From NCBI GenBank assembly GCA_963830445.1, contig CAWHMC010000005.1, positions 12,357 to 76,356 of the forward strand: DNA of 64,000 bases, written 5' to 3'. The stretch comes from an uncultured archaeon. Lineage in GTDB: Archaea; Micrarchaeota; Micrarchaeia; Micrarchaeales; CABMGC01. Shown piece after piece: positions 6,572 to 63,334 of the stretch (its first letter is position 1; the number at the start of each line of letters is the position of its first letter). The translations under genes and the position numbers were made by a program. Below the pieces are notes generated by a model that searched no databases, was not told the origin of the DNA, and saw nothing but the letters and a program-made list of their open reading frames with translations.

Positions 6572-8211
6572 ACTATGTAGGCGCTGCCCGTCGTCCTGTA
6601 GGTGGCGTTGCCCGTGCCCAGCGTGTAGTTGATGCCCAGCTTGAGCGTGAGGCCCAGCGGCAGTCCGGTCAGGACGTTGCCGTTGCTGTAGCAGATTGAT
6701 GTGACGCTCGCGGTTGCGTTAGGACGTATCGTCAGGTTCAGCTGCGCATAGGAGGGCGAACCGTTCTGGTAGCAGGCGATGCTGCGCAGCGTGAAGGTCT
6801 GGTTGATCTTGTTGTAGAACTGCAGGGTCAGGTTGCCGTTCACCAGTGAGGGGCTCCTGCAGGAGAGGCTGAAGTTCAGGCCGCAGCTGCTGTTCAGGCC
6901 TGCGGAGAAGGACTGGCTCTGCCCCGAGACGTTGAACTCGGAGAGCAGCCGTATGCCCGCCACGCTCTGGGCTGCCACATAGGAAGTGTTGACCAGCGAG
7001 ATGACCGAGAGGTTCTCCTGGCCGACGAATGCGGTGGTGCGGACCAGCGAGAGGGCGCCTATGCTGCCCGACCTGCCGAAGAGGTAGGTGGAGCAGTAGC
7101 TCCTGTTGTAGAGGGTGCTTATCACTCCGTAGCAGACGTAGTCGGAAGCGGTGTTCGGCTGTGCGCCCTCGTATATTATGGAGCTGTTGATGAAGGCGAG
7201 CCTGCCGTAGGTCGGCCCGAGGATGGAGCTGCCGGTCACGTTCGCTATGGTGGTGCTGCCGTTTATGGCAGGCAGGAAGCCGGGCGTTGCGGGAGTGGAG
7301 AGCGAGCTGCTCTTCTTTGCCAGCTGTACAGCACAGTTGCCGGCGCCTTCGTAGGTCAGCGTCTTCAGCCATCCGGCGTTGTACCAGCCGCAGGTGGTGG
7401 TGTTGCTGTTCAGGTGCGTGACCGCAAGCGTTGTTCCGTTAATGCTGGTGTAGTTAGTCTTGAGCTTGAGGCCCTGGGCCCACACGGCGGTGACGTTGCT
7501 GGAGAGGGAGCCCTGCAGCCAGAGCGAGTAGGCGCTGGCGTTCGGGTAGGTCGCCTCGGCCGAATACATGCTGTTTATGTAGCTGTAGGTGAGATTCAGC
7601 AGCGGGGTGAAGAAGGCATCGGCTGCTGGAATCTTGGAGAGGGCGAAGTTGGAGAGACCGTAGTTCCCGACGAGATAGGAGTAGGTGAGGTAGCCCACCT
7701 TGCTGAGGTAGGTCGACTTCTCTCCAGTCCAGTTGGACGGAAGTGTGGTGTAAGCGGAGGGTGTGGCTGGGGCCTGGACTATTATCTGGAAGTGCACCTG
7801 GGCGTTGTTCCTGTTCACCAGGTCGTAGAGCTTGCTCGGATCCGAGATGAAGCTCACGTTGTAGGTGCCGGGCACGGTGAACTGCTTGCTGAAGTTGATA
7901 TAGACGTTGCGGCCCGTCGGCAGCGAGACGTTGTATATGGAGGTCAGGTTGTTGTTTACGAATATCCCGATCCCGACGCTCTTTATGGCGTCCGTGCCTG
8001 CGTTCGTAATCTCGACGGGGATGAAAACACTCTGGTAGGGATAGATGCGCGTGGTTATGTTGCTCTGGCTTACGTTAAGCTGCAGGTTGATCGGGCCACT
8101 GCCCGTTCCGTGCGTCTCGGTGTAGAGCACCGCCAGCGCGGCTATCGCGATGACTATTATTGCTACCCAGGTGTATTTGTCGTTTTTCTCCATGCGATCA
8201 CATTCCCGCAT
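6568..8211 (-). CDS. Membrane-anchored, sequon-rich surface protein with an N-terminal CARDB-like domain
   Basis: N-terminal TM helix WVAIIVIAIAALAVLY, then a CARDB-like block (VEITNAGTDAIKSVGIGIFVNN...YINFSKQFTVPGTYNVSFISDP) and dozens of N-x-S/T sequons. An alternative start at 8193 (MEKNDKY) would avoid overlap with the upstream gene. Confidence 0.6.
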   Translation of the reverse strand: MRECDRMEKNDKYTWVAIIVIAIAALAVLYTETHGTGSGPINLQLNVSQSNITTRIYPYQSVFIPVEITNAGTDAIKSVGIGIFVNNNLTSIYNVSLPTGRNVYINFSKQFTVPGTYNVSFISDPSKLYDLVNRNNAQVHFQIIVQAPATPSAYTTLPSNWTGEKSTYLSKVGYLTYSYLVGNYGLSNFALSKIPAADAFFTPLLNLTYSYINSMYSAEATYPNASAYSLWLQGSLSSNVTAVWAQGLKLKTNYTSINGTTLAVTHLNSNTTTCGWYNAGWLKTLTYEGAGNCAVQLAKKSSSLSTPATPGFLPAINGSTTIANVTGSSILGPTYGRLAFINSSIIYEGAQPNTASDYVCYGVISTLYNRSYCSTYLFGRSGSIGALSLVRTTAFVGQENLSVISLVNTSYVAAQSVAGIRLLSEFNVSGQSQSFSAGLNSSCGLNFSLSCRSPSLVNGNLTLQFYNKINQTFTLRSIACYQNGSPSYAQLNLTIRPNATASVTSICYSNGNVLTGLPLGLTLKLGINYTLGTGNATYRTTGSAYIV

Positions 8212-9050: not shown

Positions 9051-9119
9051 CCTCGCATCCGATATTCGTACAATAAACCTAAATATCTGAATTTTAGGAA
9101 GGCTAATGGTTGGGAGAAG

Positions 9120-9458
9120 ATGGAGTACCAAATAATAGGACATGTACGCGTAGGAGTATCAAGGTGTGCGGTCAGCTGTAGTGTTGAGCGGCCGCTTGCC
9201 GATGAGAGGCACGGGAGGGACAGGAATCGACCTTCCCAGATTGCCCAGGTGCTTGAGATAAAACTGAAGGAGCTGGAGCGGGGACCGAAAGGTGAAGTGG
9301 CGAAGCTGATTGGGATAGGGAGCGAGTCGTTACCTAATGAAGGGATACTTGTCTTCGGAGCCCTGCCTCGTTGCTCCAAGGAGGGGATGATTAACAGTCT
9401 GGTGGAGCTTGCGACAGAGCTGGGCAAGCAGGCGGAGGAGCTGCTCTACAGGAGTTGA
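9120..9458 (+). CDS. Hypothetical small protein
   Basis: 112-aa ORF. Codon usage (ATA, AGG, AAG, GAG) resembles the neighbouring genes. A TATA-like AAACCTAAATATC sits about 38 nt upstream of the ATG. No recognisable family. Confidence 0.35.
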   Translation: MEYQIIGHVRVGVSRCAVSCSVERPLADERHGRDRNRPSQIAQVLEIKLKELERGPKGEVAKLIGIGSESLPNEGILVFGALPRCSKEGMINSLVELATELGKQAEELLYRS

Positions 9459-19377: not shown

Positions 19378-19416
19378 AGCTAGGGAAAACTTCCACTACA
19401 AGCGCTTTTTAAAAAG

Positions 19417-19436
19417 CTATTTAAACCTATTTAAAC
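19417..19436 (+). promoter_or_regulatory. Tandem duplicated TATA-like element (CTATTTAAAC x2) upstream of the RNA polymerase operon
   Basis: Exact 10-nt tandem repeat preceded by AAAAAG, lying 65-85 nt upstream of the rpoH GTG. Confidence 0.4.
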
Positions 19437-19500
19437 TAATAAAGGGTATGCCTAACGTAAGAGTTAGAGTCAGCGCGCGTTTTTTGGCAGTGGTGTAAGA

Positions 19501-30472: not shown

Positions 30473-32506
30473 TTATGCGTATGAACAGTAGCCGCCCTGG
30501 GTGGTGATCCATGTTCCTCCGCTTGCCCTACATGATGCCGGCGTGTTTATCGTTGTGGTGAATGGCACGGTAGTGGTTGACACCGTAGTGCTGGTTGTCG
30601 GACATGAGCCCCCGTTCTGTCCGGCCAGTGGGGTGTAGGTTATTGAAGCGTATTCGTAGGAGGAGATGGTGCCGGTTGGGCAAAGGTGGCTTGGGTCGTT
30701 CGTGCCGCAGCCTCCGCCTCCCAACGTTACGTTCAGGTAACTGTACCCTGCTGGATTGAAGTCTTGGTCCGCCTCTGCTATTGCCAGGTCCGACTCTGTG
30801 TCTGTGGCGTTGGACCAGGTCGTCGAGGGATTACTAAAAGTGCTAGGGCCTATTCCAGTAAATGCGTAGGCGACGTCTGGGCCGTATTGATCCTCTACGA
30901 ATCCTATCGCGTGTAGGTGGATGTTTGTGGCGTTCGGATATTGGGTGAGGTCTACCCCGTAGTTCCAGACATAGGATGGTCCGTAGCCTCTCCCTGCTGA
31001 GACCAGAGAGACGGTCTCTTGAGAACAGAGGGGCAGGATGGTGGTGGTTGTGGAAGTGCTCGTGGTTGATGTTGTGCTTGTGGACTGTACAACTAATGCT
31101 GCGGTTGGCGAAAGTACAGGATCGTCCGCTCCATAGCAGAAGTAATAGGTCCCTGCACTTTGAGTTTGAGCGGAGGAGATGGTTTGGGTATTTGTGCAAC
31201 CGCTAGTACATAGTAGAGCAGCTACACTACAAGGACCTGAGGATTGCCCAGAAGCCTGATACCATCCTGAAACGTATGTGCCTGCCGGACCACTCGCATC
31301 GGCAGTTAGTGTTGCAGTCTGCCCAGTGGTTATCGTTGATGGGTATATTGATGGCGTGCCGGCGTAGATTAGGATACTCGTTGTTGTGGTGGAAGCGGAT
31401 GTTGACGTGCTTGTGGATGTTGATGTTGAAGTTGACGTGGAGGTGCTGGTGGAGGTGGAAGTCGACGTCGTTGAAGTGGTCGTTATCGCGACGTAGTTCG
31501 CCTGCAGTGTCATCGGTGCGTTCACCGTGGGCCCTGCGATGCTCGACGGGCATGCGGTGCTCGAGCTGTATCCGTTGCTCCAGCTCGTGAATCCGTAGGC
31601 GCCGTTGTTGTTGTAGTTAGGTTGGGTGCAGATGAATGAGATCGTGGACCCAGAAGGGACGGACTCTGAGACTGAGGATTGCCCTGCGCCGTTGCAGAAC
31701 AAGGCGGTTTGGTTGCTCTGGTAGGTGTACTTGAAGCACGCCTGCCAGTCGGCTCCTACTGCTCCCGGGCTTAGCTGCAGAGTCACCGTGTAGTAGGTTA
31801 TTCCCATGATCGTGGTTGAGGTAGTCGAGGAGGTAGTGCTTGTTGTGGTGGACGTGGATGTGGAAGTCGTTGAGGAAGAGGGTATTGTAGATCCGCCGCC
31901 GGAGACTGTGGTAGTGCTGCTTGAGCTTGATGCTGTGGAGGCAGCAGAGGTTGGGGACGTTGTTGTGGCGGTTGTTGATGTCGTCGATGCCGTTTGTGGC
32001 GCTGGGGTTGGCCCGGGAGCGGATACGACCGCCGTGCCGGCAATCTTTAATGCGGTGAGGGCGCTTGGATTGCTGCAGGCGCCGGTGTTGCACTCCTTGT
32101 ACTGTATGTAGAACTCAGGGTTGACCTGACTCCCCTGGGTCGGGCTGAAGCCTTTTATGAATGTTGAGCAGCTAGCGCTCTGGCCGGGAAGCAGCTGGGT
32201 CGTATTACAGGATCCTGACGCGTACTGGCTGCCGACAGCCGGAGAGACCACATACCCGGTTATCAGCATCGGCGTGCTTTGAAGGTTGGTGAAGAGGGTG
32301 GTGAGGTTGGATCCCAGGGTGTTTGACGTGAAGGTCGTCCTGTAGCAGTCGATCTCCGCTGAGATATAGCAGTAGGAGGAGGTTGATGCTATCTGCCGCT
32401 GCACCGTCGCTATGGCGAAGATTGCTGAGATGGTAAGGATGAGTAAAGCTATCGCCCAGGAGTACTGCATAAGGAATTCTGTTGAGGATTGGCCCTTTAA
32501 ATCCAT
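30473..32506 (-). CDS. Large (677-aa) protein with a class III (prepilin-like) signal peptide, conserved pilin-like N-module and adhesin-like C-terminal domains
   Basis: N-terminus MDLKGQ/SSTEFLMQYSWAIALLILTISAIFAI. A Cys-patterned module is shared with 33180-34856 and 34919-36430. Long Ser/Thr linkers include (ST)n, and a Cys beta-module is related to those in 26716-29784. Confidence 0.75.
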   Translation of the reverse strand: MDLKGQSSTEFLMQYSWAIALLILTISAIFAIATVQRQIASTSSYCYISAEIDCYRTTFTSNTLGSNLTTLFTNLQSTPMLITGYVVSPAVGSQYASGSCNTTQLLPGQSASCSTFIKGFSPTQGSQVNPEFYIQYKECNTGACSNPSALTALKIAGTAVVSAPGPTPAPQTASTTSTTATTTSPTSAASTASSSSSTTTVSGGGSTIPSSSTTSTSTSTTTSTTSSTTSTTIMGITYYTVTLQLSPGAVGADWQACFKYTYQSNQTALFCNGAGQSSVSESVPSGSTISFICTQPNYNNNGAYGFTSWSNGYSSSTACPSSIAGPTVNAPMTLQANYVAITTTSTTSTSTSTSTSTSTSTSTSTSTSTSASTTTTSILIYAGTPSIYPSTITTGQTATLTADASGPAGTYVSGWYQASGQSSGPCSVAALLCTSGCTNTQTISSAQTQSAGTYYFCYGADDPVLSPTAALVVQSTSTTSTTSTSTTTTILPLCSQETVSLVSAGRGYGPSYVWNYGVDLTQYPNATNIHLHAIGFVEDQYGPDVAYAFTGIGPSTFSNPSTTWSNATDTESDLAIAEADQDFNPAGYSYLNVTLGGGGCGTNDPSHLCPTGTISSYEYASITYTPLAGQNGGSCPTTSTTVSTTTVPFTTTINTPASCRASGGTWITTQGGYCSYA

Positions 32507-32560
32507 GAATTAACTATTGATTAAAAACAATTATATATTCATTGCTATTGCGCCGTACAT

Positions 32561-33169
32561 CTAGGATACTTGCGCCACGGCCGTAATGAGGTTGTTCTTG
32601 GTTGCGTTGTTTGTGTAGGGAGGTAGACCGACAACGTCCATGGAGATGAGTAGGTCTCCCTTGTATCCGATAAGGTGCAGGCCAGACCCCCCGCCGATGC
32701 TTATCGTGAAGAGGGTGTAGGTCATCCCATTTATAGTGCCAGACGCGGTTGCCTGTATCGAGCTGGCGCCGGTGTAGTTCTTGAAGATTCTGATCGTGCT
32801 GTTATACCATGCGCTTGAGGAGTAGCGGGCATTACTAGTTGGGTACAGTATAGCCTCGATGGATTTGCCGGTTGTAGGTGCGCTGAAATTGAACAGCGCC
32901 GTGGCGATGTCCATGGGCGTGTTATTGTTATTGATACGTATGTATGCGGATGTTATTTGGGAGCTATAACTGCCGCTGGCGCCCAGTATCCTCGAGAGGG
33001 AGGTTTGGTTTAGGAGTAATGAGGGTGCTGTTGGAATTTGCTGTGGGATGGTGGTGGTCGTGGTGGTGCTTGTTGGAACCGTAGAGGAGAAATGCAGTAC
33101 GAAGCATGCACCTATCGCTATCACTAAAACTATTGCAACAGCCGTATACAAGAGTCTTTCGTTTTTCAT
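32561..33169 (-). CDS. Small N-terminally anchored extracellular protein, paralog of 29871-30461
   Basis: TM helix LLYTAVAIVLVIAIGACFVL, a Thr linker, and the shared C-terminal block. The start lies 10 nt after the upstream stop. Confidence 0.65.
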   Translation of the reverse strand: MKNERLLYTAVAIVLVIAIGACFVLHFSSTVPTSTTTTTTIPQQIPTAPSLLLNQTSLSRILGASGSYSSQITSAYIRINNNNTPMDIATALFNFSAPTTGKSIEAILYPTSNARYSSSAWYNSTIRIFKNYTGASSIQATASGTINGMTYTLFTISIGGGSGLHLIGYKGDLLISMDVVGLPPYTNNATKNNLITAVAQVS

Positions 33170-33179
33170 GAAATCATAT

Positions 33180-34856
33180 CTATATGCTTACAACTGTGCT
33201 GTTGGATTCCAGAATGGCCCAGGCTGTTGAGCCTCCGCCACCGTTAGGATGCACGTATACGTAGCCATATATGCGATAGTTGCCAGCCGGTAGACCGCCC
33301 TCCGTCCACTGGAAGGTAGCTGCCGGACCGCCCTGGCCGGCATTGCTTGCTATTACGCTGTCCGGATCATTGTAATTATTGGCTCCGTTAACTGCGGTCG
33401 GATAGTAATTTCCTTGGACCGGCCCCCAGCATCCGGCGTTCGGAAGGCCCGCCGGAATCTGCGCTTCTAGGTAGAACGAGCCGTAGTAAATGTTTTCTGA
33501 GCTGCGGCTATCCGAGTTCCAGTTGAACGTGAATGTGCCGGAGCTGTAACCGAACGAAGTACTAGGCATGTAGGAGCCATAGGGGCCGAGCCCGTAGTCG
33601 GGAACTAGTATGTATGCGGGGGTGGCCAATGGTGAAGCGCCCGCGCTCTGTATATTGTAAGGCCCTTGCCACCCTCCACCCGGGTTTTGCGGGCCGGGAT
33701 TTCCGCAGCTGTAGGAGTAGCTCACTGTCGTGGTGGTGCTCGATGTGGTGGTTGAGGTTGTCGATGTAGTGTATGTTCCGGTGATTGTGACTGGTCCCGC
33801 AACTGGGCTGCCGACGTTCGGGTCGTATTTGTTGCCCGAGTAGCTGATCCCGCTCCAGCCCTGCAGGTCGTAGGGCCCATTGCCCCACCAGCCCGCGGTG
33901 GCCAGGTAGTTGATTGTTGATCCATAGGGCACATCTACGGTAGCGCTTGGTTGCCCGTAACCTGTGCAGGTCTGTGGCTGGGTTGTCCCGTCAGGCATGG
34001 TATAGTTGACGCAGGCGGCCCAGTAGGTCGAGACTGCGCTCGGGGTTATCTCAAGGGTAACCGGTTCGTATTGTATTGATGTTGTGGAAGTGCTTGAGGT
34101 GGTGCTTGGGGTTGTGCTGCTGGCGAGAGTGGTGGACGTAGAGGTCGAGGTGCTGGTGGAGGTGGTGGTCGAGATTGTACTGCCGACAATGGTGGTTGTG
34201 GCTGTGCTGGTCGACGTGGATGAGGTGGATGTTGAAGCGCTTGTGGGTGGAGGACCGCCGGATACAGTGGTGGTGGAAGTTGTAATGGTTGTGGAGGCCG
34301 TAGACGTTGTTGAGGTAGAGGTGGTGCTACTGCTTGCCGTAGTCACGGGTCTGGGGGTTACCGGTGGCACCTGGAGTATGGCCGTACCGGCTATTCCCAG
34401 CTGCTTCAGGCTGCTGGCGTTCATGCACGTGCCGCTGCACTCCTTGTACTGGACATAGAAAACCGGGTTTAGCTGGGCGCCTACCGCGGGAGTGAAGCCC
34501 TGGACTGTAGAGTAGCAGGCCGCGCTCTGGCCTATCTGCAGGACGGTGGCATTGCATCCGCCCGCGGTGTAGGCCCCGGTGCTCGTCGGAGAGACCGCAT
34601 ACCCGGTTAGGAGTATTGCCGTGTCCTGGAGGTTTGTGAAGCGCGTCGTTATGTTGGAACCCATGGTGTTTAGACTGATGGAGGTCTGGTAGCAGTAGAA
34701 CTCGGGGGAGATGTAGCAGTAGGACGGCACCTGCTGCAGCTGGCGCTGGGCGGATGAGATGAATAGGACGGCTGAGAGGGTAATCACCAGGAGGACGAGA
34801 GCCCAGGAGTACTGAGCTATGAACTCTAGAGAGGACTGCCCCTTGCTCGTGCGCAT
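33180..34856 (-). CDS. Large (558-aa) protein with a class III (prepilin-like) signal peptide, conserved pilin-like N-module and adhesin-like C-terminal domains
   Basis: N-terminus MRTSKGQ/SSLEFIAQYSWALVLLVITLSAVLFI. I chose the Met at 34856 because the 44 upstream codons of the tracked ORF overlap the previous gene's 3' end, while AAAGCTTTATAAGG lies about 34 nt upstream of 34856. Confidence 0.75.
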   Translation of the reverse strand: MRTSKGQSSLEFIAQYSWALVLLVITLSAVLFISSAQRQLQQVPSYCYISPEFYCYQTSISLNTMGSNITTRFTNLQDTAILLTGYAVSPTSTGAYTAGGCNATVLQIGQSAACYSTVQGFTPAVGAQLNPVFYVQYKECSGTCMNASSLKQLGIAGTAILQVPPVTPRPVTTASSSTTSTSTTSTASTTITTSTTTVSGGPPPTSASTSTSSTSTSTATTTIVGSTISTTTSTSTSTSTSTTLASSTTPSTTSSTSTTSIQYEPVTLEITPSAVSTYWAACVNYTMPDGTTQPQTCTGYGQPSATVDVPYGSTINYLATAGWWGNGPYDLQGWSGISYSGNKYDPNVGSPVAGPVTITGTYTTSTTSTTTSSTTTTVSYSYSCGNPGPQNPGGGWQGPYNIQSAGASPLATPAYILVPDYGLGPYGSYMPSTSFGYSSGTFTFNWNSDSRSSENIYYGSFYLEAQIPAGLPNAGCWGPVQGNYYPTAVNGANNYNDPDSVIASNAGQGGPAATFQWTEGGLPAGNYRIYGYVYVHPNGGGGSTAWAILESNSTVVSI

Positions 34857-34885
34857 TGTATCCAGAGAAAAAGGTCTGCCTAGCC

Positions 34886-34897
34886 TTATAAAGCTTT
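34886..34897 (-). promoter_or_regulatory. BRE/TATA-like promoter (AAAGCTTTATAA on the minus strand)
   Basis: Lies in the 62-nt spacer between the two prepilin-like genes, about 34 nt upstream of the ATG at 34856. Confidence 0.5.
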
Positions 34898-34918
34898 TGC
34901 ACAGCGCAGGCCGCGGGG

Positions 34919-36430
34919 CTAGTTGACCGTGCCGAAAGTCGCGGTGGGCATGGCTCCGCCGGGCAGCAGGGTGCGCGTGCGTACCCACTCTACATACAGG
35001 TTGACGGTATTAGGTGCGGGGCCCGTCGCACGGAGCGTGACGTTGAACGGCGGCGGAGGGATGTAGGTGGTCAGCGTGGACGGAGAACCGTAATCCCTGT
35101 AGGTAGTGGCGCTGGTGCCGGTGTAATACAAACCGAAGACGTGATTGTAATTGTCATAGGTGTAGCTGTTTAGGGATTGGCTCAGGCCGTTGTAGGCGAT
35201 GAAAACGAACGAGCCCAGGTAGGCGTCCCAACCTACCTTGTACAGGCCCCCGTCTATTCCTGGAGTTGCGAAGAATAGCAGGCTCGTCTGACCCAGTCCT
35301 CCGGAAAGCGATCCGGTGAAGTTGCCGTAGAACTCCAGGACATCGCGCGCTGCGCTGTTTCCGAACGTGTTCGAGGTTGATGAGATGCGGCAGTCGCAGC
35401 CGCCGGTGCCGTACAGCGTTATGCCGTTGTCCACCAGGGAGTTGGCAAATGCTCCTGCTCCGTAGATCCAGTTTGGGCCGGGTACCTGGCCGGCGAAGTT
35501 GTCGTAGAAGCTGAATACCTGGGCACCGTCGTCATACTGGCCGTAGGTGCCGCGGCAGGTCGCCGGGTTCGAATTGCCGCAGGTGAGCAAGGGGGCAAGG
35601 CCCGTCGGTCCCGCGGTTGAGAGCACGAAATTTGGCATGAAGTCCATGTAGATTATGGTGTTGGCGCCGGAGGGGATGCTGTTCGCCACCTTCACCCACA
35701 CTACGGTGTGGGTGGCTGTGCCTGTGGCGTTGCTCTCCACCCAGGCGTTGAGCAGGCTGCCCGTGGCATTGGGACCCGTGGTGAACTCGACGTTAGACCA
35801 GGCGGTGCTGATGGGGTACTTGTAGCTGGGAATGGCAAGCATCTGCTGGTAGTTCGCACCGGTGGGGCTGGCCTGGAAGTTGGTCAGTGTAATCGGGACA
35901 TAATAGACGCGCGTCAGGGTGGTGGCGATTATGGCAGGCGCCTGGACGACCGCGCTCCCGCGCGTGGTGAACGTCTGGGTCTCGGTTGCCGGGTTGCATA
36001 TGTAATTATTACATAGTTTATAGCCCAAACTTAATTGCGGAGAGATCTGTGATCCGGTGCTGGGAAGGAAGTTGCCTGAGAAGGAGGTGCATGAAGCCGT
36101 CTGGCCGGGCTGGAGCACGGAGGCGTTGCATACTCCAGGCGCATAGGTGCCGGAAATAGTTGGTGCTGTGGAGTAACTAGTCAGTATTATGGGTGCATCC
36201 TGTTGGTTTGTGATGAATGTAGTGAAGAGCGTGCCGGTGGTGTTCATCTGCATGGAGGTCTGATAGCAGTTGATCTCTGGGGAGATGTAGCAGTAGGTGG
36301 AGGAGTTGGCGTACTTCTGCTGCGACATTGAGATGTAGTATACGACGCCTACCGCAACCGCTATGATCAGTATCGCCCAGGAGTATTGTATGACGAACTC
36401 CGTAGCGGCCTGTCCCTTTATCTGATCCAT
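34919..36430 (-). CDS. Large (503-aa) protein with a class III (prepilin-like) signal peptide fused to DUF2341-like and LamG/ConA-like lectin domains
   Basis: N-terminus MDQIKGQ/AATEFVIQYSWAILIIAVAVGVVYYI. The DUF2341-like block is YYVPITLTN...WSNVEFTT...LLNAWVES...HTVVWVKVANSIPSGANTIIYMDF. The C-terminal LYVEWVRTRTLLPGGAMP is typical of the associated LamG-like domain. Confidence 0.75.
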   Translation of the reverse strand: MDQIKGQAATEFVIQYSWAILIIAVAVGVVYYISMSQQKYANSSTYCYISPEINCYQTSMQMNTTGTLFTTFITNQQDAPIILTSYSTAPTISGTYAPGVCNASVLQPGQTASCTSFSGNFLPSTGSQISPQLSLGYKLCNNYICNPATETQTFTTRGSAVVQAPAIIATTLTRVYYVPITLTNFQASPTGANYQQMLAIPSYKYPISTAWSNVEFTTGPNATGSLLNAWVESNATGTATHTVVWVKVANSIPSGANTIIYMDFMPNFVLSTAGPTGLAPLLTCGNSNPATCRGTYGQYDDGAQVFSFYDNFAGQVPGPNWIYGAGAFANSLVDNGITLYGTGGCDCRISSTSNTFGNSAARDVLEFYGNFTGSLSGGLGQTSLLFFATPGIDGGLYKVGWDAYLGSFVFIAYNGLSQSLNSYTYDNYNHVFGLYYTGTSATTYRDYGSPSTLTTYIPPPPFNVTLRATGPAPNTVNLYVEWVRTRTLLPGGAMPTATFGTVN

Positions 36431-54026: not shown

Positions 54027-54122
54027 TGGACTCCGCGGGATTTTCGTGCCGTTTGAGGCGGCGATTCGAACCCGCAACCTCCTGCATGCCATGCAGGCGC
54101 GCTGCCGTTGCGCCAGGAGCCC
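54027..54122 (-). tRNA. tRNA-Ala (anticodon GGC) with a 24-nt intron at position 59/60. No encoded CCA.
   Basis: The hand-folded 72-nt mature cloverleaf has acceptor GGGCUCC/GGAGUCC with G3:U70, D stem GCGC/GCGC, anticodon arm CCUGC-AUGGCAU-GCAGG, T arm GCGGG-UUCGAAU-CCCGC, and discriminator A. Confidence 0.85.
54041..54064 (-). other. tRNA intron (UCGCCGCCUCAAACGGCACGAAAA) within a bulge-helix-bulge motif
   Basis: Outer helix is the T stem. Central 4-bp helix is UUCG/CGAA. There are two 3-nt AAU bulges. Inner helix GCCG/CGGC closes a 7-nt loop. Confidence 0.75.
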
Positions 54123-54433: not shown

Positions 54434-54988
54434 TCAGATGTATTCTGCCGAGAGCGCAGCCACCAGCTGCGTAACCTTGGTGCCCGTGCCGGGCAGTGAG
54501 TAGTTTATCCACAGGTAGCCGGCATAGGTTGTCTGGCCTCCTGCGGATGTGGCTCTGCCTCCCTGATTGTAGCAGTAGATCAGGAAGTTGTGCGATGCGC
54601 CGCTGAATATCTTTACTCCCGTGCCGGGCGAGGAGCCAGAGGGATAATAAGCGACCGTATTGGTGGTGTAGATGTTGCCATAGGTGGGTGTGGGCGAGCT
54701 CGTGCTGCCGTTCAGGGTGGAGGAGCAGGCTATCCCGTAGATGGTTATGTCGCCTCCGGTAGCCTGCACTATGGAGATGTTCATTATCCCGTTGAAATAT
54801 AGGAACATGTAGCCGCAGGCGAAGCCAGAGGTGGCCACGCACTCCTGGGAGGTGAATGCCTGCTTTGTCGGTGCGCTGATGAAGTAGACCGCTGCGAGTG
54901 CGGCGACGATTATCACTATGGCTACGCCATAGGAGATCATGAAGTCCAGCGCCGCCTGCGCCTTGTACGCGTTTCCCGATTGCTTCAA
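54434..54988 (-). CDS. Short (184-aa) archaeal type IV pilin-like protein with a class III signal peptide
   Basis: N-terminus MKQSGNAYKAQ/AALDFMISYGVAIVIIVAALAAVYFI, followed by a Ser/Thr/Gly-rich beta-type domain. The TTG start directly follows the rps2 TAG. Confidence 0.7.
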   Translation of the reverse strand: MKQSGNAYKAQAALDFMISYGVAIVIIVAALAAVYFISAPTKQAFTSQECVATSGFACGYMFLYFNGIMNISIVQATGGDITIYGIACSSTLNGSTSSPTPTYGNIYTTNTVAYYPSGSSPGTGVKIFSGASHNFLIYCYNQGGRATSAGGQTTYAGYLWINYSLPGTGTKVTQLVAALSAEYI

Positions 54989-57168: not shown

Positions 57169-57187
57169 TTTGTGTACCTTTTCCGTA

Positions 57188-57274
57188 TGCAAGGGGTGAG
57201 ATTCGAACTCACGCATGCACTAAAGCAACTGACCCCTCAAGCCAGCGCATTTGACCAAGCTCTGCCACCCTTGC
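57188..57274 (-). tRNA. tRNA-Leu (anticodon GAG), class II with a long variable arm. No encoded CCA.
   Basis: Hand-folded with acceptor GCAAGGG/CCCUUGC, anticodon arm CUGGC-UUGAGGG-GUCAG, a 16-nt variable region, T arm GUGAG-UUCGAAU-CUCAC, and discriminator A. Confidence 0.85.
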
Positions 57275-57277
57275 ATT

Positions 57278-57859
57278 TTATTTCTTCAGCTCTTTCTGTA
57301 TCTCTTTCACGTTTGTGTTTATTATATCTAACGCACGTGCGAGCATCTCCGGTGCCGTCATCTGGCCAAATGATTCAATATAAAACTCGAAGTCCTTCTC
57401 CTTCTCGTCGGCGGTGTAGCTGGCGAGGCCCGCCTGGTACTTGGCGCTGGTGCGTCCGGTTCCGAGCTTCGCCTTCGCGTCCACCCTCAGGACCTGCCCC
57501 TGGGCGAGCTTGATGAGCGGGATGTTGTCGTTGGCGACCTCCACTTCCCCGCTGCTCTTCAGCTCCTTGGAGTAGACAGTCTTGGGGCCCGTCTCGTTGA
57601 GGGAGAGCAGGACCTCCTCCTTTCCGTTGTAATTCTTGGGTGCCTTGAGCGGGACCAGGCCCAGCCTGTGGGCGATGTACTCGTCGAACATGGCGCTCGT
57701 GTTGTCGTAGAATGTGACGTTGTCTATGGCGAAAGTGGGGATGCTCGTCATTATTATCCGGCGCAGCGCGTTGACAAAGTTGTAGGTCGCTCCGCTGAAT
57801 TTCACCCGGACTGCGAAGGGTGTGCTCTCTAACACGCTAATTTTCATAAGATCCGCCAA
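57278..57859 (-). CDS. rpoD: DNA-directed RNA polymerase subunit D (Rpo3)
   Basis: FVNALRRIIMTSIPTFAIDNVTFYDNTSAMFDEYIAHRLGLVPLK. 193 aa. Confidence 0.92.
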   Translation of the reverse strand: MADLMKISVLESTPFAVRVKFSGATYNFVNALRRIIMTSIPTFAIDNVTFYDNTSAMFDEYIAHRLGLVPLKAPKNYNGKEEVLLSLNETGPKTVYSKELKSSGEVEVANDNIPLIKLAQGQVLRVDAKAKLGTGRTSAKYQAGLASYTADEKEKDFEFYIESFGQMTAPEMLARALDIINTNVKEIQKELKK

Positions 57860-58021
57860 AAGAAGGCACTATGGTTAAGAATATGCAAGATAATGTATTT
57901 AAACCTAACTACGCAGACGGGATTAGTGGACAAACGCCAGCATTTATCGGATTTTTTATTTAAATAGGTTGTAGAACTATAAGGTAGAATTAGGCTTAAA
58001 ATGGGTGCCGAGTTTGAACAA

Positions 58022-59092
58022 TCATTTCGCTTTGTCAATTATTCTATGAAGTTGGTTTAAAAACTCATAGGTATCTACGAAGTAATTTGGGTACGCTTTT
58101 TGTAGGTCGTGAGCTGCGTCAACGCTCACAAGAACTACGTCGTATTCTTTATTACCAGTATATCGCTTTTCGAGAGTGGCGTACTCATTTAGTGCCTGTT
58201 GTTCTTCTTTCTTTGTATACGTGTGAATTAGTAGCTTTTCTCCTGGAATGTCTAGTTCCAACAAGGAAAATCTGACTTCTCCTTTTCTTTTGGTCTTTTC
58301 GTTAAAGACCTTCAGTGCGCTCGTCCAGCCTCTCATTTTGTTTATAATGTTTAGTTCTTTTTCCTTTTGCTTGATCTTCGCATATAGCTCTTTTTCATCG
58401 CCAGGAGTGTCTGGCACTACTGGACAGTTCTCTATTTTAGCAAAAGCTGCGCTCACAAGTTTAAAAAATTCTAATAGTTCGGGGGATCCCTCGTTTGATT
58501 TTATTGCTTGTCTGGTGAAAAAACCGGCAGTTTCAACTGCGGTAGCCCATATGTGTTGTAACCGTGATCTTATTTGGACTTCGATTAGTAGTCCGGTGTA
58601 CTCTTTTTTCCCTTCTCTGTCGCTGTTGTAGTTATAAATCAGGTGTATGCCCCTATAGCCGTCTTGTTTTGGTGTCGTTATATAATCTTTAAATCCTGTT
58701 CTTTTGTGCTTCAGGTCTCCTTTAAGATAATAATTATCACATAATTTCTTGGCTAATGTAACGTTTGATAAAACAGCCCTGCAGCCACCAATATCCTGCA
58801 TCTGATAAAGGGCCATGGATGGATTATGGCCGTGGTACTTTCTACGTAATTTGGCGATGATCGCTGGCGCACGCTTTAAACGGCTTGCGATGAGCGAATC
58901 TTTATCTAATTTCTTTGAGACTATCTTCAAACGCATGTAAAATACGTGCATGGGATAACTGTGGACTGCCCGCCAATTGTCTAGTATCTCTAAGGCTTTG
59001 TCCATGTCGGGACTTGAAGTATCGGAATCGCGTAGTACCCTTCCGGCCCAATTAATCTCACTTTTATTATAAAGTGGTTTTTCCCACGCCAT
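58022..59092 (-). CDS. RelA/SpoT-family nucleotidyltransferase (small alarmone synthetase / toxSAS-like) with a roughly 140-aa C-terminal extension
   Basis: All four synthetase motifs are present: SRLKRAPAIIAKL, DIGGCRAVL, KDYITTPKQDGYRGIHLIY and EVQIRSRLQHIWA. The gene is AT-rich (43 and 37 G+C in two 100-nt samples, against 70 in a 100-nt sample of adjacent rpoD). Confidence 0.85.
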   Translation of the reverse strand: MAWEKPLYNKSEINWAGRVLRDSDTSSPDMDKALEILDNWRAVHSYPMHVFYMRLKIVSKKLDKDSLIASRLKRAPAIIAKLRRKYHGHNPSMALYQMQDIGGCRAVLSNVTLAKKLCDNYYLKGDLKHKRTGFKDYITTPKQDGYRGIHLIYNYNSDREGKKEYTGLLIEVQIRSRLQHIWATAVETAGFFTRQAIKSNEGSPELLEFFKLVSAAFAKIENCPVVPDTPGDEKELYAKIKQKEKELNIINKMRGWTSALKVFNEKTKRKGEVRFSLLELDIPGEKLLIHTYTKKEEQQALNEYATLEKRYTGNKEYDVVLVSVDAAHDLQKAYPNYFVDTYEFLNQLHRIIDKAK

Positions 59093-59125
59093 AATTGTAT
59101 ATGCGTACTTACTATTATTTAAATG

Positions 59126-59194
59126 TTCATTTGCGCGGTTATCTCTAAGACGACAATATACATATATGCGTATTAATTATTCATTTTGCGCGGT
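59126..59194. repeat. Imperfect direct repeats (TATATGCGTA...TTCATTT(T)GCGCGGT, two copies) in the promoter region of the RelA/SpoT-like gene
   Basis: TTCATTTGCGCGGT at 59126-59139 and TTCATTTTGCGCGGT at 59180-59194. Each is preceded by TATATGCGTA (59098-59107 and 59163-59172). Confidence 0.6.
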
Positions 59195-59332
59195 AAAGGA
59201 ATTTGATAAGACCGTAAAACTATGGAAATCGCTTTAAACTACAAACCGATTGGCCACTCGAATAACGGAAGTTTCGGTAACGGGGTTAAGCTTTTTAATT
59301 CTTCTCACACAGTATTAGTCAAGGCGATTAGA

Positions 59333-59617
59333 ATGAAGATCTCTGAAATATACAGGATGGATATATACAGCGATGACGGTCAGTACGTCGGTGACGTGCA
59401 GGATGTGATCATAGACCTAGAGAAGGGCGAGATAAGCAGGCTTCTCATGACACCATGGAAGAACGCGAAGGGCGATGCCAACCTGGTATTGAAGAAGAAG
59501 AGCATACTTTACAAGAGCGTCAAGAACATCGGCGACGTGGTACTCGTAGGTGGAGCCGCTTCGGGCTCACGCGAAGAGGCTGCAAGCCGGGAAGAGATAA
59601 ACGACCTGTCTAGATAA
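59333..59617 (+). CDS. PRC-barrel domain protein
   Basis: MDIYSDDGQYVGDVQDVIIDLEKGEISRLLM...SVKNIGDVVLV. AAGCTTTTTAAT lies about 35-45 nt upstream of the ATG at 59333. The longer ORF starts at 59222. Confidence 0.65.
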   Translation: MKISEIYRMDIYSDDGQYVGDVQDVIIDLEKGEISRLLMTPWKNAKGDANLVLKKKSILYKSVKNIGDVVLVGGAASGSREEAASREEINDLSR

Positions 59618-60202
59618 CTAGATAGATTTCTGCTTTTCCTTTTCTTTTTTGTAGGGCCGGTCTAGGTGCACCACCTTGGGCACCCTGACGCCCCGCTGAC
59701 CCAGATACTTGCCGCTGTAGGCGTTCTTTACCGGATTCAGCGTAGCGGCGAAGATCACGTGGGCGAACCGCATCCCTGGTTTCAGGAGTATCTTCGTTTC
59801 TCCGGCGTTGAACACCTCGAGGGTTACGTTGCCTTCGAAGCCTGCGTCGATTATCGTGGGAGGGAGCAGGAGGCCGTGGCGCGCCCAGGTGCTGCGCAGC
59901 TCCACGAAGCCCATCAGGTTGTTGGGCAGCTTGATGTACTCGTAAGTTGACATTAAAACCTGCTCATGTGGATTGATTACCAGTCCTTTTTCGTTGCGCT
60001 CGATCACGTATTCTTTCGCTACGTGCTCCTCATTTTCCGGATCGAGTATGAAATCGGGATTGAGCTTCGGGTTGTGGCGTGCCATCTCCATATCGAGACG
60101 CAGGTCCATCCCATTCTCGCGTATGAGCTCATGGTGGAAGGGCTTTATGACAAGCCGTTGGCTGCGAATCATGTTTTCCAGATCATAGTCGGATAGAATC
60201 AT
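59618..60202 (-). CDS. dcd: dCTP deaminase (possibly bifunctional dCTP deaminase/dUTPase)
   Basis: MILSDYDL, GFVELRSTWARHGLL, IDAGFEGNVTLEVFN and AHVIF. Confidence 0.88.
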   Translation of the reverse strand: MILSDYDLENMIRSQRLVIKPFHHELIRENGMDLRLDMEMARHNPKLNPDFILDPENEEHVAKEYVIERNEKGLVINPHEQVLMSTYEYIKLPNNLMGFVELRSTWARHGLLLPPTIIDAGFEGNVTLEVFNAGETKILLKPGMRFAHVIFAATLNPVKNAYSGKYLGQRGVRVPKVVHLDRPYKKEKEKQKSI

Positions 60203-60857
60203 TCAGTTCACCAGTGTAAGTAGTCTTTATCTCAATGAATGCGGCCTTTGTGATTGCGCTTATGTCCTTCTTTGCATCGATCTTCGCCCATCTCTTCGCG
60301 CCATACCCATCTGCCCAGAGCTTCAGGTAGAAGGAGCGCACCTTCTCCTGGAAGAGCAGGTCCTTCTCCATGCGGTCTGCTGTGAGTTTCTTCTGCTTCG
60401 CTTTCCTCTTGAAGGCGTCCTTTGCAGGAATGTCGAAGTATAGAACTAGGGTAGGGGAGGGGAGTTTCATTATCCTGCTCGCTATCATCTTTATCTCTTC
60501 ATAGTCGAAGCCATTAGAGGACTGGTAGGCTATGGTGGAGAAGAAGTATCGGTCTAGGAAGACGACCTTGCCGGCATCGAGATCTTTCTCTATGAGCCCT
60601 TTGTCTCGCACCATGTCGAGCAGATACAGGCACACCTGCTCTACCGGGGAGAGTTCCAGCTTTCCGGCCAGGAACTGCTTCCTTATTATCCTACCGTAGA
60701 ACTTGTCGTGAGTCGGATAGGAGTAGATGCTGGATTCTATGCCCGCAGCCTTGAGGTGGCGTGCAAGAAGGGGGATCTGGGTGGACTTGCCGGACCCGTC
60801 AACACCCTCTAAGGCAACAAGAATACCTCGCACCACCAGGACCTCCGCTAGATACAA
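60183..60857 (-). CDS. tmk: Thymidylate kinase
   Basis: P-loop ALEGVDGSGKSTQ, DRYFFSTIAYQ, and a lid-like basic region. It overlaps dcd by 20 nt. Confidence 0.85.
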   Translation of the reverse strand: MYLAEVLVVRGILVALEGVDGSGKSTQIPLLARHLKAAGIESSIYSYPTHDKFYGRIIRKQFLAGKLELSPVEQVCLYLLDMVRDKGLIEKDLDAGKVVFLDRYFFSTIAYQSSNGFDYEEIKMIASRIMKLPSPTLVLYFDIPAKDAFKRKAKQKKLTADRMEKDLLFQEKVRSFYLKLWADGYGAKRWAKIDAKKDISAITKAAFIEIKTTYTGELNDSIRL

Positions 60858-62806: not shown

Positions 62807-63334
62807 GTGTTGTTCATGGAATTGCTCAAGGAGATTACAGAAAGTTCGCTGGGGCTCAGCAGGCACCTTGCCTCGCGCTACAAGGTCCGCAGAGCTGCCC
62901 GGGCCGTCCTCTTCAACGAGAAGGAGGAGGTGGCATTGCAGTACTCTTCGCGGCTCAAGTACCATAAACTGCCCGGGGGAGGCATAGAGGAAGGCGAGAG
63001 TGTAGAGACTGCCCTGCGGCGCGAGATAAAAGAGGAGACGGGATGCCTAATCGATAGGTTCACCGAGATGGGCCTTGTTATGGAATACAGGAACAGGGCA
63101 CGTGTGCTGGGAATCTCATTTTGTTTCATGGCCTACACCAAGGGAGCCAGGCAGCCACTCATGCTCACGAAGCGCGAGCGTATGCAGGGATTCGTAGTGG
63201 AGTGGATGCCTCTCGACAAGGCGATAGCAACGGTCCGGTCCGAAGAGCGCGGTGGATACCTGGGGCGGTTCATGAGGGCGCGGGAGATACTGCTGCTTGA
63301 GACTGCCAGGAAGAGGCAGCAGTTGCAGAGTTAA
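62807..63334 (+). CDS. NUDIX hydrolase
   Basis: Nudix box GGGIEEGESVETALRREIKEETGC. Confidence 0.8.
   Translation: MLFMELLKEITESSLGLSRHLASRYKVRRAARAVLFNEKEEVALQYSSRLKYHKLPGGGIEEGESVETALRREIKEETGCLIDRFTEMGLVMEYRNRARVLGISFCFMAYTKGARQPLMLTKRERMQGFVVEWMPLDKAIATVRSEERGGYLGRFMRAREILLLETARKRQQLQS

Follow-up and report, generated by a model that had tools for sequence, protein, structure and literature searches.

Gene content and base composition of the locus

We analyzed a 64,000-nt stretch of contig CAWHMC010000005.1 from an uncultured Micrarchaeota archaeon (hereafter the window), in which a gene resembling the bacterial toxin-antitoxin protein CapRel lies in an AT-rich island beside the RNA polymerase gene rpoD. 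The gene is an open reading frame (ORF) of 356 aa plus stop codon on the minus strand (58022-59092 in the ORF list of the window). Its assignment as a CapRel-like, fused toxin-antitoxin form of toxic small alarmone synthetase (toxSAS) draws on Pfam, PADLOC, phmmer, AlphaFold2 (AF2) and Foldseek. A first-pass annotation, made from the sequence alone, had described the full RelA/SpoT synthetase motif set in this protein, and all of the quoted peptides were located: SRLKRAPAIIAKL at residues 70-82, DIGGCRAVL at 100-108, KDYITTPKQDGYRGIHLIY at 135-153 and EVQIRSRLQHIWA at 171-183. The N-terminal helical strings that it named are also present. Pfam returned RelA_SpoT (residues 70-184, E 2e-15) as the sole domain; HD, TGS and ACT domains were not found in the protein, in agreement with the earlier view that it has no hydrolase domain.

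The island at 57860-59332 has a GC content of 0.390, compared with a mean of 0.546 (SD 0.037) for segments of equal length. It is the lowest-GC stretch of the whole 64 kb, and fewer than 0.1% of such segments are equally low. Sliding 300-nt GC values run at 0.36-0.42 within ∼57800-59450 vs. 0.53-0.61 on both flanks. The GC at third codon positions (GC3) of the CapRel-like ORF, 0.41, is the minimum among 61 ORFs (mean 0.70, SD 0.09). The AT-richness noted earlier was thus confirmed by measurement, but the 70 G+C per 100 nt given for rpoD was overstated, since that gene has 55% GC overall (GC3 0.79).

The neighbors of the CapRel-like gene are rpoD and genes for a PRC-barrel protein, dCTP deaminase, thymidylate kinase and ribosomal proteins; archaeal RNA polymerase and ribosomal protein operons are also found in the window. 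The best named matches of the neighboring RpoD are metagenome-assembled genomes (MAGs) of Micrarchaeota/Micrarchaeia.

The protein aligns with CapRel over its full length

A phmmer search against the PDB gave CapRel chains 7ztb_A and 9erv_A (E 3e-46, 161 bits), with query residues 8-353 aligned to chain residues 15-371. The alignment takes in the C-terminal ∼150 residues for which no function had been assigned. This part had been called Lys/Glu-rich; it is only moderately so (K+E content of 24% vs. 14% in the N-terminal part), and it matches the antitoxin region of CapRel. The next PDB matches were the small alarmone synthetases (SAS) RelQ and RelP (E 2e-8, at most 37 bits), which aligned to the synthetase core/N-terminal domain only. 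In tblastn searches of phage records, the RelA/SpoT gene of Salmonella phage SJ46 was found at 34% identity and 97% coverage. PADLOC reported PDC-S33 at E 7.9e-116 (protein residues 1-354 vs. profile positions 1-343 of 349), a full-length match to an uncharacterized candidate single-gene label of which our literature search found no mention. Scores for the NCBIfam housekeeping SAS model GTPPhKinYjbM (41.6 bits, cut-off 320) and for the long RelA/SpoT homolog (RSH) model TIGR00691 (16.5 bits, cut-off 499) fell far short of the cut-offs.

An AF2 model, built with an alignment of 49 members of the archaeal clade described below, had a mean predicted local distance difference test score (pLDDT) of 84.9 and a predicted template modeling score of 0.81. 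Its top Foldseek match was 7ztb_B (E 4.6e-25, template modeling score 0.72, 360 aligned columns); SAS structures aligned over only ∼190 residues. In Foldseek the 7ztb and 9erv entries carry the names “Salmonella tRNA pyrophosphokinase CapRel” and “CapRel bound to Bas11 Gp54”. The C-terminal region of the model consists of helices 204-220 and 233-270, strands 275-281 and 286-292, helix 294-310, strand 317-323 and helix 327-355. We assign the cysteine-free β-β-α-β unit at residues 275-323 as the pseudo-zinc-finger domain (pseudo-ZFD) because its topology equals the description of CapRel-SJ46 (PMC9712102).

The domains were placed on the minus strand as follows. The putative toxSYNTH (pyrophosphokinase) domain spans residues 1-193 (58514-59092) and, from residue mapping onto CapRel-SJ46, contains R71 and R105 of the adenine pocket, Y146 of the G-loop, D100 and E171. 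The C-terminal antitoxin/sensor region in the AF2 model, residues 204-356 (58025-58483), comprises anchor helices, the pseudo-ZFD and the C-terminal helix. On the basis of AF2 topology and the published description (PMC9712102), the pseudo-ZFD is bounded at residues 271-325 (58118-58282) and is the presumed trigger-binding surface. The YXXY autoinhibition motif, Y334-P-N-Y337 (58082-58093), aligns with Y352/Y355 of CapRel-SJ46.

The roles of A77, R79, R116, Y155, V338, L339, A341, A351, Y352 and Y355 in CapRel-SJ46 were tested by Zhang et al. (PMC9712102), and substitution Y352A or Y355A makes that protein constitutively toxic (PMC9712102). Nine of these ten catalytic or autoinhibition residues are kept in the archaeal protein (SJ46 to query: A77 to A69, R79 to R71, R116 to R105, Y155 to Y146, V338 to V320, L339 to L321, A351 to A333, Y352 to Y334 and Y355 to Y337), including five of the six at the docking interface (A77, R116, V338, L339, A341 and A351). 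Both proteins have the same hexapeptide, AYPNYF, around the YXXY plug. Across the 49 clade members, D100, E171 and Q173 are invariant together with R71, R105 and Y146, and so are Y334, P335, Y337, V320, L321 and A333. Entropy across 80 clade members was 1.26-2.0 bits in the pseudo-ZFD vs. 0.88 in the catalytic core; the N-terminal helices are as variable as the sensor region. Residues 191-201 (RQAIKSNEGSPE, 58490-58522), which form the loop joining the synthetase to the anchor helices, have a pLDDT of less than 50 in the model. This loop nevertheless ranks with the best conserved parts of the clade proteins (0.69 bits), is common to CapRel-SJ46 (SNEGHPE) and may be a functional hinge or substrate-contact loop.

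In a midpoint-rooted neighbor-joining tree, which has short internal branches, no support values and no labeled PhRel, FaRel or FaRel2 references, the 31 sampled members of the archaeal clade were monophyletic and nested in a comb of fused CapRel homologs that includes SJ46 and phage-borne genes. A placement nearest to CapRel relative to other toxSAS subfamilies is strongly suggested by these comparisons. In the other defining features that sequence can show, the protein agrees with fused CapRel throughout, and the earlier proposal of a CapRel-type fusion is upheld by the full-length match to CapRel-SJ46 (C-terminal domain included) and by the retained YXXY and ATP-site residues.

Comparison with related systems

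CapRel-SJ46 from Salmonella phage SJ46 (PDB 7ZTB and 9ERV) is likewise a single polypeptide of ∼360 aa that aligns over the full length, at 34-38% identity. The likeness extends to the toxSYNTH domain with equivalents of R79, R116 and Y155, the anchor helices, the cysteine-free pseudo-ZFD, the C-terminal helix with AYPNYF and the interface residues. The archaeal gene differs in its host and in its chromosomal housekeeping context (a prophage for CapRel-SJ46). It also differs in having an archaeal TATA promoter, probably giving a leaderless transcript, with clade-specific repeats. CapRel-Ebc and CapRel-Kp of the bacteria Enterobacter and Klebsiella belong to the same fused family (likened here by description, not by sequence); in these proteins the C-terminal domain sets trigger specificity (PMC9712102). 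Triggers of CapRel may also be non-capsid proteins, for example T7 Gp0.4 with FtsZ (PMC13423816).

PhRel/ATphRel of mycobacteriophage Phrann (gp29/gp30) and the bicistronic CapRel/ATcapRel of Actinobacteria, again likened by description, have a homologous toxin and antitoxin. They are two-gene operons, whereas toxin and antitoxin are fused here; PhRel is the sister subfamily of CapRel (PMC7229694, PMC9712102). The housekeeping enzymes RelQ and RelP (YjbM/YwaC) share the synthetase fold over ∼120-190 residues, but they are only ∼20% identical, are ∼210 aa long compared with 356 aa, and lack the C-terminal autoinhibitory domain. Unlike long RSH proteins (Rel/RelA/SpoT), which have HD, TGS and ACT domains, the archaeal protein gave none of these in the Pfam result. 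An archaeal mobile-element gene in the Nitrososphaera provirus Pro-Nvie1 (FR725450.1, 5945-6256) is annotated with an N-terminal Rel_Spo-like domain; only residues 65-183 align to its product (31% identity), and the architecture is different.

The gene occupies a single-gene insertion beside rpoD

The closest relative with a long contig (L007, RpoD 71% identical) has the gene order thymidylate kinase, dCTP deaminase, PRC-barrel, 176 bp, and rpoD-L18e-L13-S9-rpoN-S2-LSM, with no RelA/SpoT gene in this order. In a DNA alignment of the window with L007, homology stops at GGCCAATCGGTT on the PRC-barrel side and restarts at TGTCCACTAA, continuing through GGTTTAAATA to the ATG of rpoD. Because homology breaks off and restarts at these points, the extra DNA is taken as 57936-59240 (1,305 nt). 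The AT-rich island had been given wider limits (57860-59332), which hold for base composition but not for the DNA extra to L007. Since L007 keeps the order from thymidylate kinase to rpoD without the gene, the window has a ∼1.3-kb single-gene insertion. We describe it as a cassette on the minus strand with a promoter region, the CapRel-like ORF and a short 3′ tail, delimited by the empty site of L007, the GC drop and contig L001 (see below). The gene is also absent upstream of rpoD in L174 (RpoD 84% identical), L008 and L009. The rpoD promoter GGTTTAAATA is kept downstream of the insertion and is conserved with L007 and L174.

Both flanking genes lie outside the cassette. On one side is rpoD (57278-57847, minus strand, 189 aa, identified by Pfam and homologs). 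On the other is the PRC-barrel gene (59333-59617, plus strand, 94 aa counted from the second ATG, identified by Pfam PRC and the L007 ortholog); in L007 the ortholog has 93 aa and directly adjoins rpoD. A 64-aa ORF (57844-58038) straddles the insertion boundary.

Horizontal acquisition of the gene, proposed in the first-pass annotation, is borne out by the foreign base composition and the empty site in relatives, and the insertion in this genome is recent. One argument used for it does not hold. The S13-S4-S11 block is indeed absent upstream of rpoD in the window, and ten small window ORFs that were scanned gave no match to S13, S4 or S11. The block is likewise absent in the four relatives without the gene (L007, L174, L008 and L009), and its absence is therefore a lineage feature unrelated to the gene. 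The view that there is no separate antitoxin gene stands: the neighbors are present in L007, which has no CapRel-like gene, and no shared neighbor was found in 87 related loci.

No terminal inverted repeats, integrase, transposase or adjoining tRNA integration site were found at the island. A tRNA-Leu(GAG) gene (57187-57275) sits beyond rpoD, on the opposite side from the island; it is embedded in the rpoD-ribosomal protein operon, with rpoD and the L18e gene as its neighbors, away from the insertion boundary. The sequence GTTTGT occurs at the left junction (59241-59246) and at the right junction (57930-57935) of the L007 alignment on the minus strand and was considered as a possible short target duplication; at 6 nt it is at chance level and was rejected. 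A 23-nt likeness between 57826-57848 (5′ end of rpoD) and 59142-59164, 1316 nt apart, was also rejected as a target duplication. It is taken as chance because p was ∼0.06 in shuffles and because the upstream copy sits between the operator-like copies described in the next section. A separately assembled Logan contig (L001, run ERR11630400, 3,262 bp) matches part of the window letter for letter and runs from thymidylate kinase through dCTP deaminase, PRC-barrel and the CapRel-like gene to the start of rpoD. Since it crosses both junctions, a chimeric assembly is disfavored.

An archaeal promoter with operator-like repeats

An archaeal TATA box (TTTAAATA, 59116-59123, minus strand), recognized from the sequence and from upstream regions of the clade, starts 31 nt before the ATG. 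By the usual archaeal distance between TATA box and transcription start, a leaderless mRNA is predicted for the CapRel-like gene. A TTTAWAT element 20-39 nt before the ATG was matched 62 times in 80 related upstream regions. A scan for sigma-70 promoters and terminators gave 6 promoters (4.1 in shuffles) and 4 terminators (1.6 in shuffles) and was set aside, as it is not meaningful for an archaeon.

Repeat searches and clade comparison revealed a pair of operator-like repeats (ACCGCGCAAAA, ∼54 nt apart) upstream of the TATA box that is common to the archaeal clade. In the window the proximal copy ACCGCGCAAATGAA (59126-59139, minus strand) lies directly upstream of the B recognition element/TATA box, and the distal copy TACCGCGCAAAATGA (59181-59195, minus strand) lies 55 nt further upstream; they are the only two motif matches in the 64 kb. 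The 12-nt consensus is AACCGCGCAAAA, followed by the TATA box after 5-7 nt. The proximal copy is found 40-49 nt before the ATG, typically at −44/−45, in 58 of 80 loci, with the next copy most often 52-56 nt away. Within 300 nt upstream of the gene, GCGCAAA has a density of 6.7 per kb, ∼137-fold above the 0.049 per kb in the rest of the same loci, and with a stricter pattern 126 of 132 matches were upstream of a CapRel gene in sense orientation. The motif was seen upstream of the CapRel genes in L002, L003, L005, L010, L011 and L092-L173. Among bacterial or phage loci, 75 of 76 had no copy.

Variants of the repeat include GCGCAAAA, GCCCAAAA, GCGCATTTTGACA, GCGCAACTGAACA and CCCGAAAT. They change in concert within each promoter: loci without the canonical motif carry one variant (GCCCAAAA, GCGCATTTTGACA, GCGCAACTGAACA or CCCGAAAT) in all copies of that promoter. 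Such joint change is expected of operator sites recognized by a sequence-specific factor that moves with the cassette or co-varies with it; the repeats themselves accompany the gene in different archaeal phyla. The concerted variation could alternatively stem from local duplication of repeat units. The repeats probably bind a regulator that sets expression of the gene. CapRel itself is a speculative candidate for this regulator, put forward because it is the sole cassette-encoded protein available. If it did bind the repeats, a fused toxSAS would gain a DNA-binding autorepressor function like that of classical type II antitoxins. That archaeal CapRel is a self-contained mobile, self-regulating immunity cassette of promoter, operators and one gene is a tentative idea that we regard as doubtful.

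A large archaeal clade and its mobility

A word-indexed search recovered 2,326 homologs. The best 120 of these were 60-75% identical, and the names among them were Woesearchaeota, Micrarchaeota, Nanoarchaeota/Nanoarchaeia or “archaeon”. An exhaustive search of 50%-identity representatives gave 4,637 matches at E ≤ 1e-3 and 1,342 at E ≤ 1e-30. Alignments were full-length for nearly all of the 150 best matches, which makes the fused architecture the rule. Close relatives in species-representative genomes came from two Iainarchaeum, one Woesearchaeota and one Nitrosotalea, and at least 80 loci at 54-68% identity were found in JGI metagenomes. IMG/VR contained mostly relatives of 34-41% identity, which are presumed to be bacterial phages or prophages. 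The archaeal clade that contains the CapRel-like gene is thus large and consists mainly of DPANN members; as over 120 clusters are at least 60% identical, the earlier remark that RelA/SpoT homologs are rare in archaea is misleading for this group. The only close (60%) homolog in a viral collection is L012 (IMG/VR GVMAG-S-1041346-124_000001), which carries a giant-virus-MAG label and is the same 17.7-kb contig as L132; it is probably a mis-binned cellular contig.

Two intermediate representatives also come from what look like archaeal contexts: in L172 the operator-like motif precedes an archaeal TATA box, and L173 adjoins an archaeal-type S15/S13e gene. In the latter context, a 79-aa WYL-domain gene (L173 7074-7313) overlaps the 3′ end of the 43%-identical CapRel homolog; WYL proteins are frequent regulators of defense genes. 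No neighbor family was common to more than 4 of 87 related loci. The two closest homologs occupy different housekeeping loci. One (L010 8001-9068, 73% identical) immediately precedes the rpoH-rpoB-rpoA operon, in the same direction, in a second Micrarchaeota-like genome (the comparison region in the window is 19378-19500), and the other (L011, 75% identical) lies between genes for leucyl-tRNA synthetase and a glycosyltransferase. Three of the 87 loci, among them the window and L134, have a neighbor from a family that resembles RpoD in sequence. The cassette may favor promoters of RNA polymerase operons as insertion sites.

Across 59 loci mean GC was 0.33 for the gene and 0.35 for the host. In high-GC hosts the gene has markedly more AT than its surroundings (gene/host 0.34/0.53 in L002, 0.39/0.54 in L010, 0.42/0.50 in L011 and 0.41/0.55 in the window), and in low-GC hosts the two agree; in L132 the mismatch is reversed (0.475 vs. 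0.38). These mismatches argue for repeated transfer.

Long exact direct repeats of local sequence flank the cassette in 6 of 56 loci, 5 of them distinct since L012 equals L132. The repeats measure 61 nt in L132/L012 (4262-4322 and 5617-5677), 41 nt in L126 (4734-4774 and 6127-6167), 22 nt in L167 (392-413 and 1792-1813), 18 nt in L133 (315-332 and 1794-1811) and 15 nt in L010 (7707-7721 and 9137-9151), compared with a longest repeat of 13 nt in reversed and reverse-complement controls. They differ from locus to locus and extend imperfectly beyond the exact core. Read by eye, the L132 repeats appear to take in the start of the downstream gene, which suggests a duplicative insertion preserving that gene. 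The cassette may have spread by duplicative (Campbell-type or similar) insertion. No recombinase gene was found in cassettes with flanking direct repeats, and the window itself has no long flanking repeat. Around the L010 cassette there are five copies of a short TGTCGGAATAATSC-like unit (∼7740-7800 and ∼9080-9160), distinct from the operator motif. By eye, the 3′ regions of the cassettes showed no obvious conserved sequence between loci.

Proposed mechanism and alternative explanations

We consider it likely that the gene is an archaeal fused-CapRel toxSAS that reached its place between the PRC-barrel gene and the rpoD operon by horizontal transfer of a ∼1.3-kb single-gene cassette. Its predicted mode of action follows CapRel-SJ46 and CapRel-Ebc (PMC9712102, PMC11578894, PMC13423816). 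In the resting state the C-terminal pseudo-ZFD would dock back on the synthetase, with the YXXY 3-10 helix plugging the adenine pocket between R71 and R105. A protein of the infecting virus (capsid or other) would bind the pseudo-ZFD/anchor surface and keep the enzyme open. The N-terminal domain would then move pyrophosphate from ATP to the 3′ CCA end of tRNAs, which would stop aminoacylation and translation and abort the infection. The CCA end of tRNA is universal, and for this reason the chemistry should work in an archaeon. Judged from the bacterial proteins, virus-triggered tRNA pyrophosphorylation is the most likely mechanism.

Several points weigh against this reading. The gene lies among housekeeping genes, outside any defense island or provirus; near it, PADLOC analysis of 10 neighbors found no other defense genes and gave only generic thymidylate kinase and NUDIX matches. 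Interface residue A341 of CapRel-SJ46 is S323 in the query, the sole change among the ten. The arms-race signal is weak, because the variability of the sensor only moderately exceeds that of the core and is matched by that of the N-terminal helices. Toxicity, substrate, trigger and antiviral effect in archaea are argued by analogy, and no clear sequence signature separates tRNA-modifying from nucleotide-modifying toxSAS enzymes (Kurata et al.).

The last point bears on whether the enzyme might instead be a toxic nucleotide pyrophosphokinase that makes (pp)pApp or (p)ppGpp and drains ATP or GTP. The RelA_SpoT synthetase fold and the ATP-site residues are common to all RSH enzymes, and the toxSAS enzymes FaRel and GRel/Pag1B do act on nucleotides. 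However, the sole close characterized relatives, CapRel-SJ46 and CapRel-Ebc, pyrophosphorylate tRNA, and the score of 161 bits to CapRel stands against at most 37 bits to nucleotide-modifying SAS, so that we find a nucleotide substrate rather improbable. A housekeeping SAS that gives a stringent-response-like signal would agree with the intact catalytic residues of the synthetase domain and with the position next to transcription and translation operons. It is highly improbable in view of the absence of the gene from this locus in four relatives, its foreign base composition, NCBIfam equivalog scores far under the cut-off, the 150-aa autoinhibitory domain of CapRel type and the lack of an alarmone hydrolase among the annotated neighbors.

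A selfish toxin-antitoxin (addiction) cassette, persisting through costly loss or drift after transfer with no role in virus defense, would explain why the gene is a solitary single-gene unit in varied housekeeping contexts. It also agrees with the frequent transfer judged from GC mismatch, the target duplications around the cassette in several loci and the weak hypervariability of the sensor region. A fused polypeptide, however, is unable to use the differential decay of two proteins as classical addiction modules do. The full autoinhibition and sensor apparatus is conserved, and the tested bacterial homologs are defense proteins triggered by phage proteins (PMC9712102, PMC11578894, PMC13423816). 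We therefore hold purely selfish maintenance to be unlikely. The sharp GC drop limited to ∼1.3 kb could also arise from foreign low-GC DNA misjoined to a Micrarchaeota contig by chimeric assembly or contamination. This is the most improbable explanation of all, given the exact match of L001 (ERR11630400) over both junctions, the collinearity of both flanks with L007 and the similar single-gene insertions in many independent assemblies.

Other features of the window

The PADLOC matches mentioned above are to candidate models: the thymidylate kinase (60183-60857) matched PDC-M51B at 1.2e-18 and the NUDIX protein (62807-63334) matched PDC-S07 at 5e-9. The thymidylate kinase gene is in the same place in L007, and its match probably reflects generic domain similarity. 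A weak partial tRNA match at 54058-54115 on the minus strand scored 30.3 bits in Rfam (gathering score 29) and was not called by ARAGORN; a matching sequence is found beside the LSM gene in L010. Several ORFs in 30473-36430 and at 54434-54988 have similar hydrophobic N-termini (for example TEFLMQYSWAI, TEFVIQYSWAIL and ALDFMISYGVAI) that resemble archaeal type IV pilin-like signal sequences. The 54434-54988 ORF, the only pilin-like ORF scanned, had no Pfam or PADLOC match.

Implications

These results extend a known bacterial immune family into the archaea and leave the concept of the family unchanged. What they add is a sizeable archaeal CapRel clade with two undescribed details, the operator-like repeats and the long target duplications. 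CapRel/toxSAS papers describe the subfamily as bacterial and phage-borne, and one adds “even some archaea”; no discussion of an archaeal CapRel clade was found in the CapRel/toxSAS literature searched, nor any link between CapRel and DPANN beyond a survey listing both terms. CapRel is among the best understood bacterial immune proteins that directly sense a viral protein. DPANN archaea widely carry a CapRel that, judged by its residues, is intact and catalytically complete and that has an archaeal promoter; they still exchange it, as exemplified by the fresh insertion beside the rpoD operon. It is therefore probable that stopping translation at the tRNA CCA end serves as an immune strategy across domains of life. 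Since a sensor of this kind must by definition respond to a viral protein, the archaeal CapRel proteins may also give access to the scarcely known viruses of DPANN archaea.

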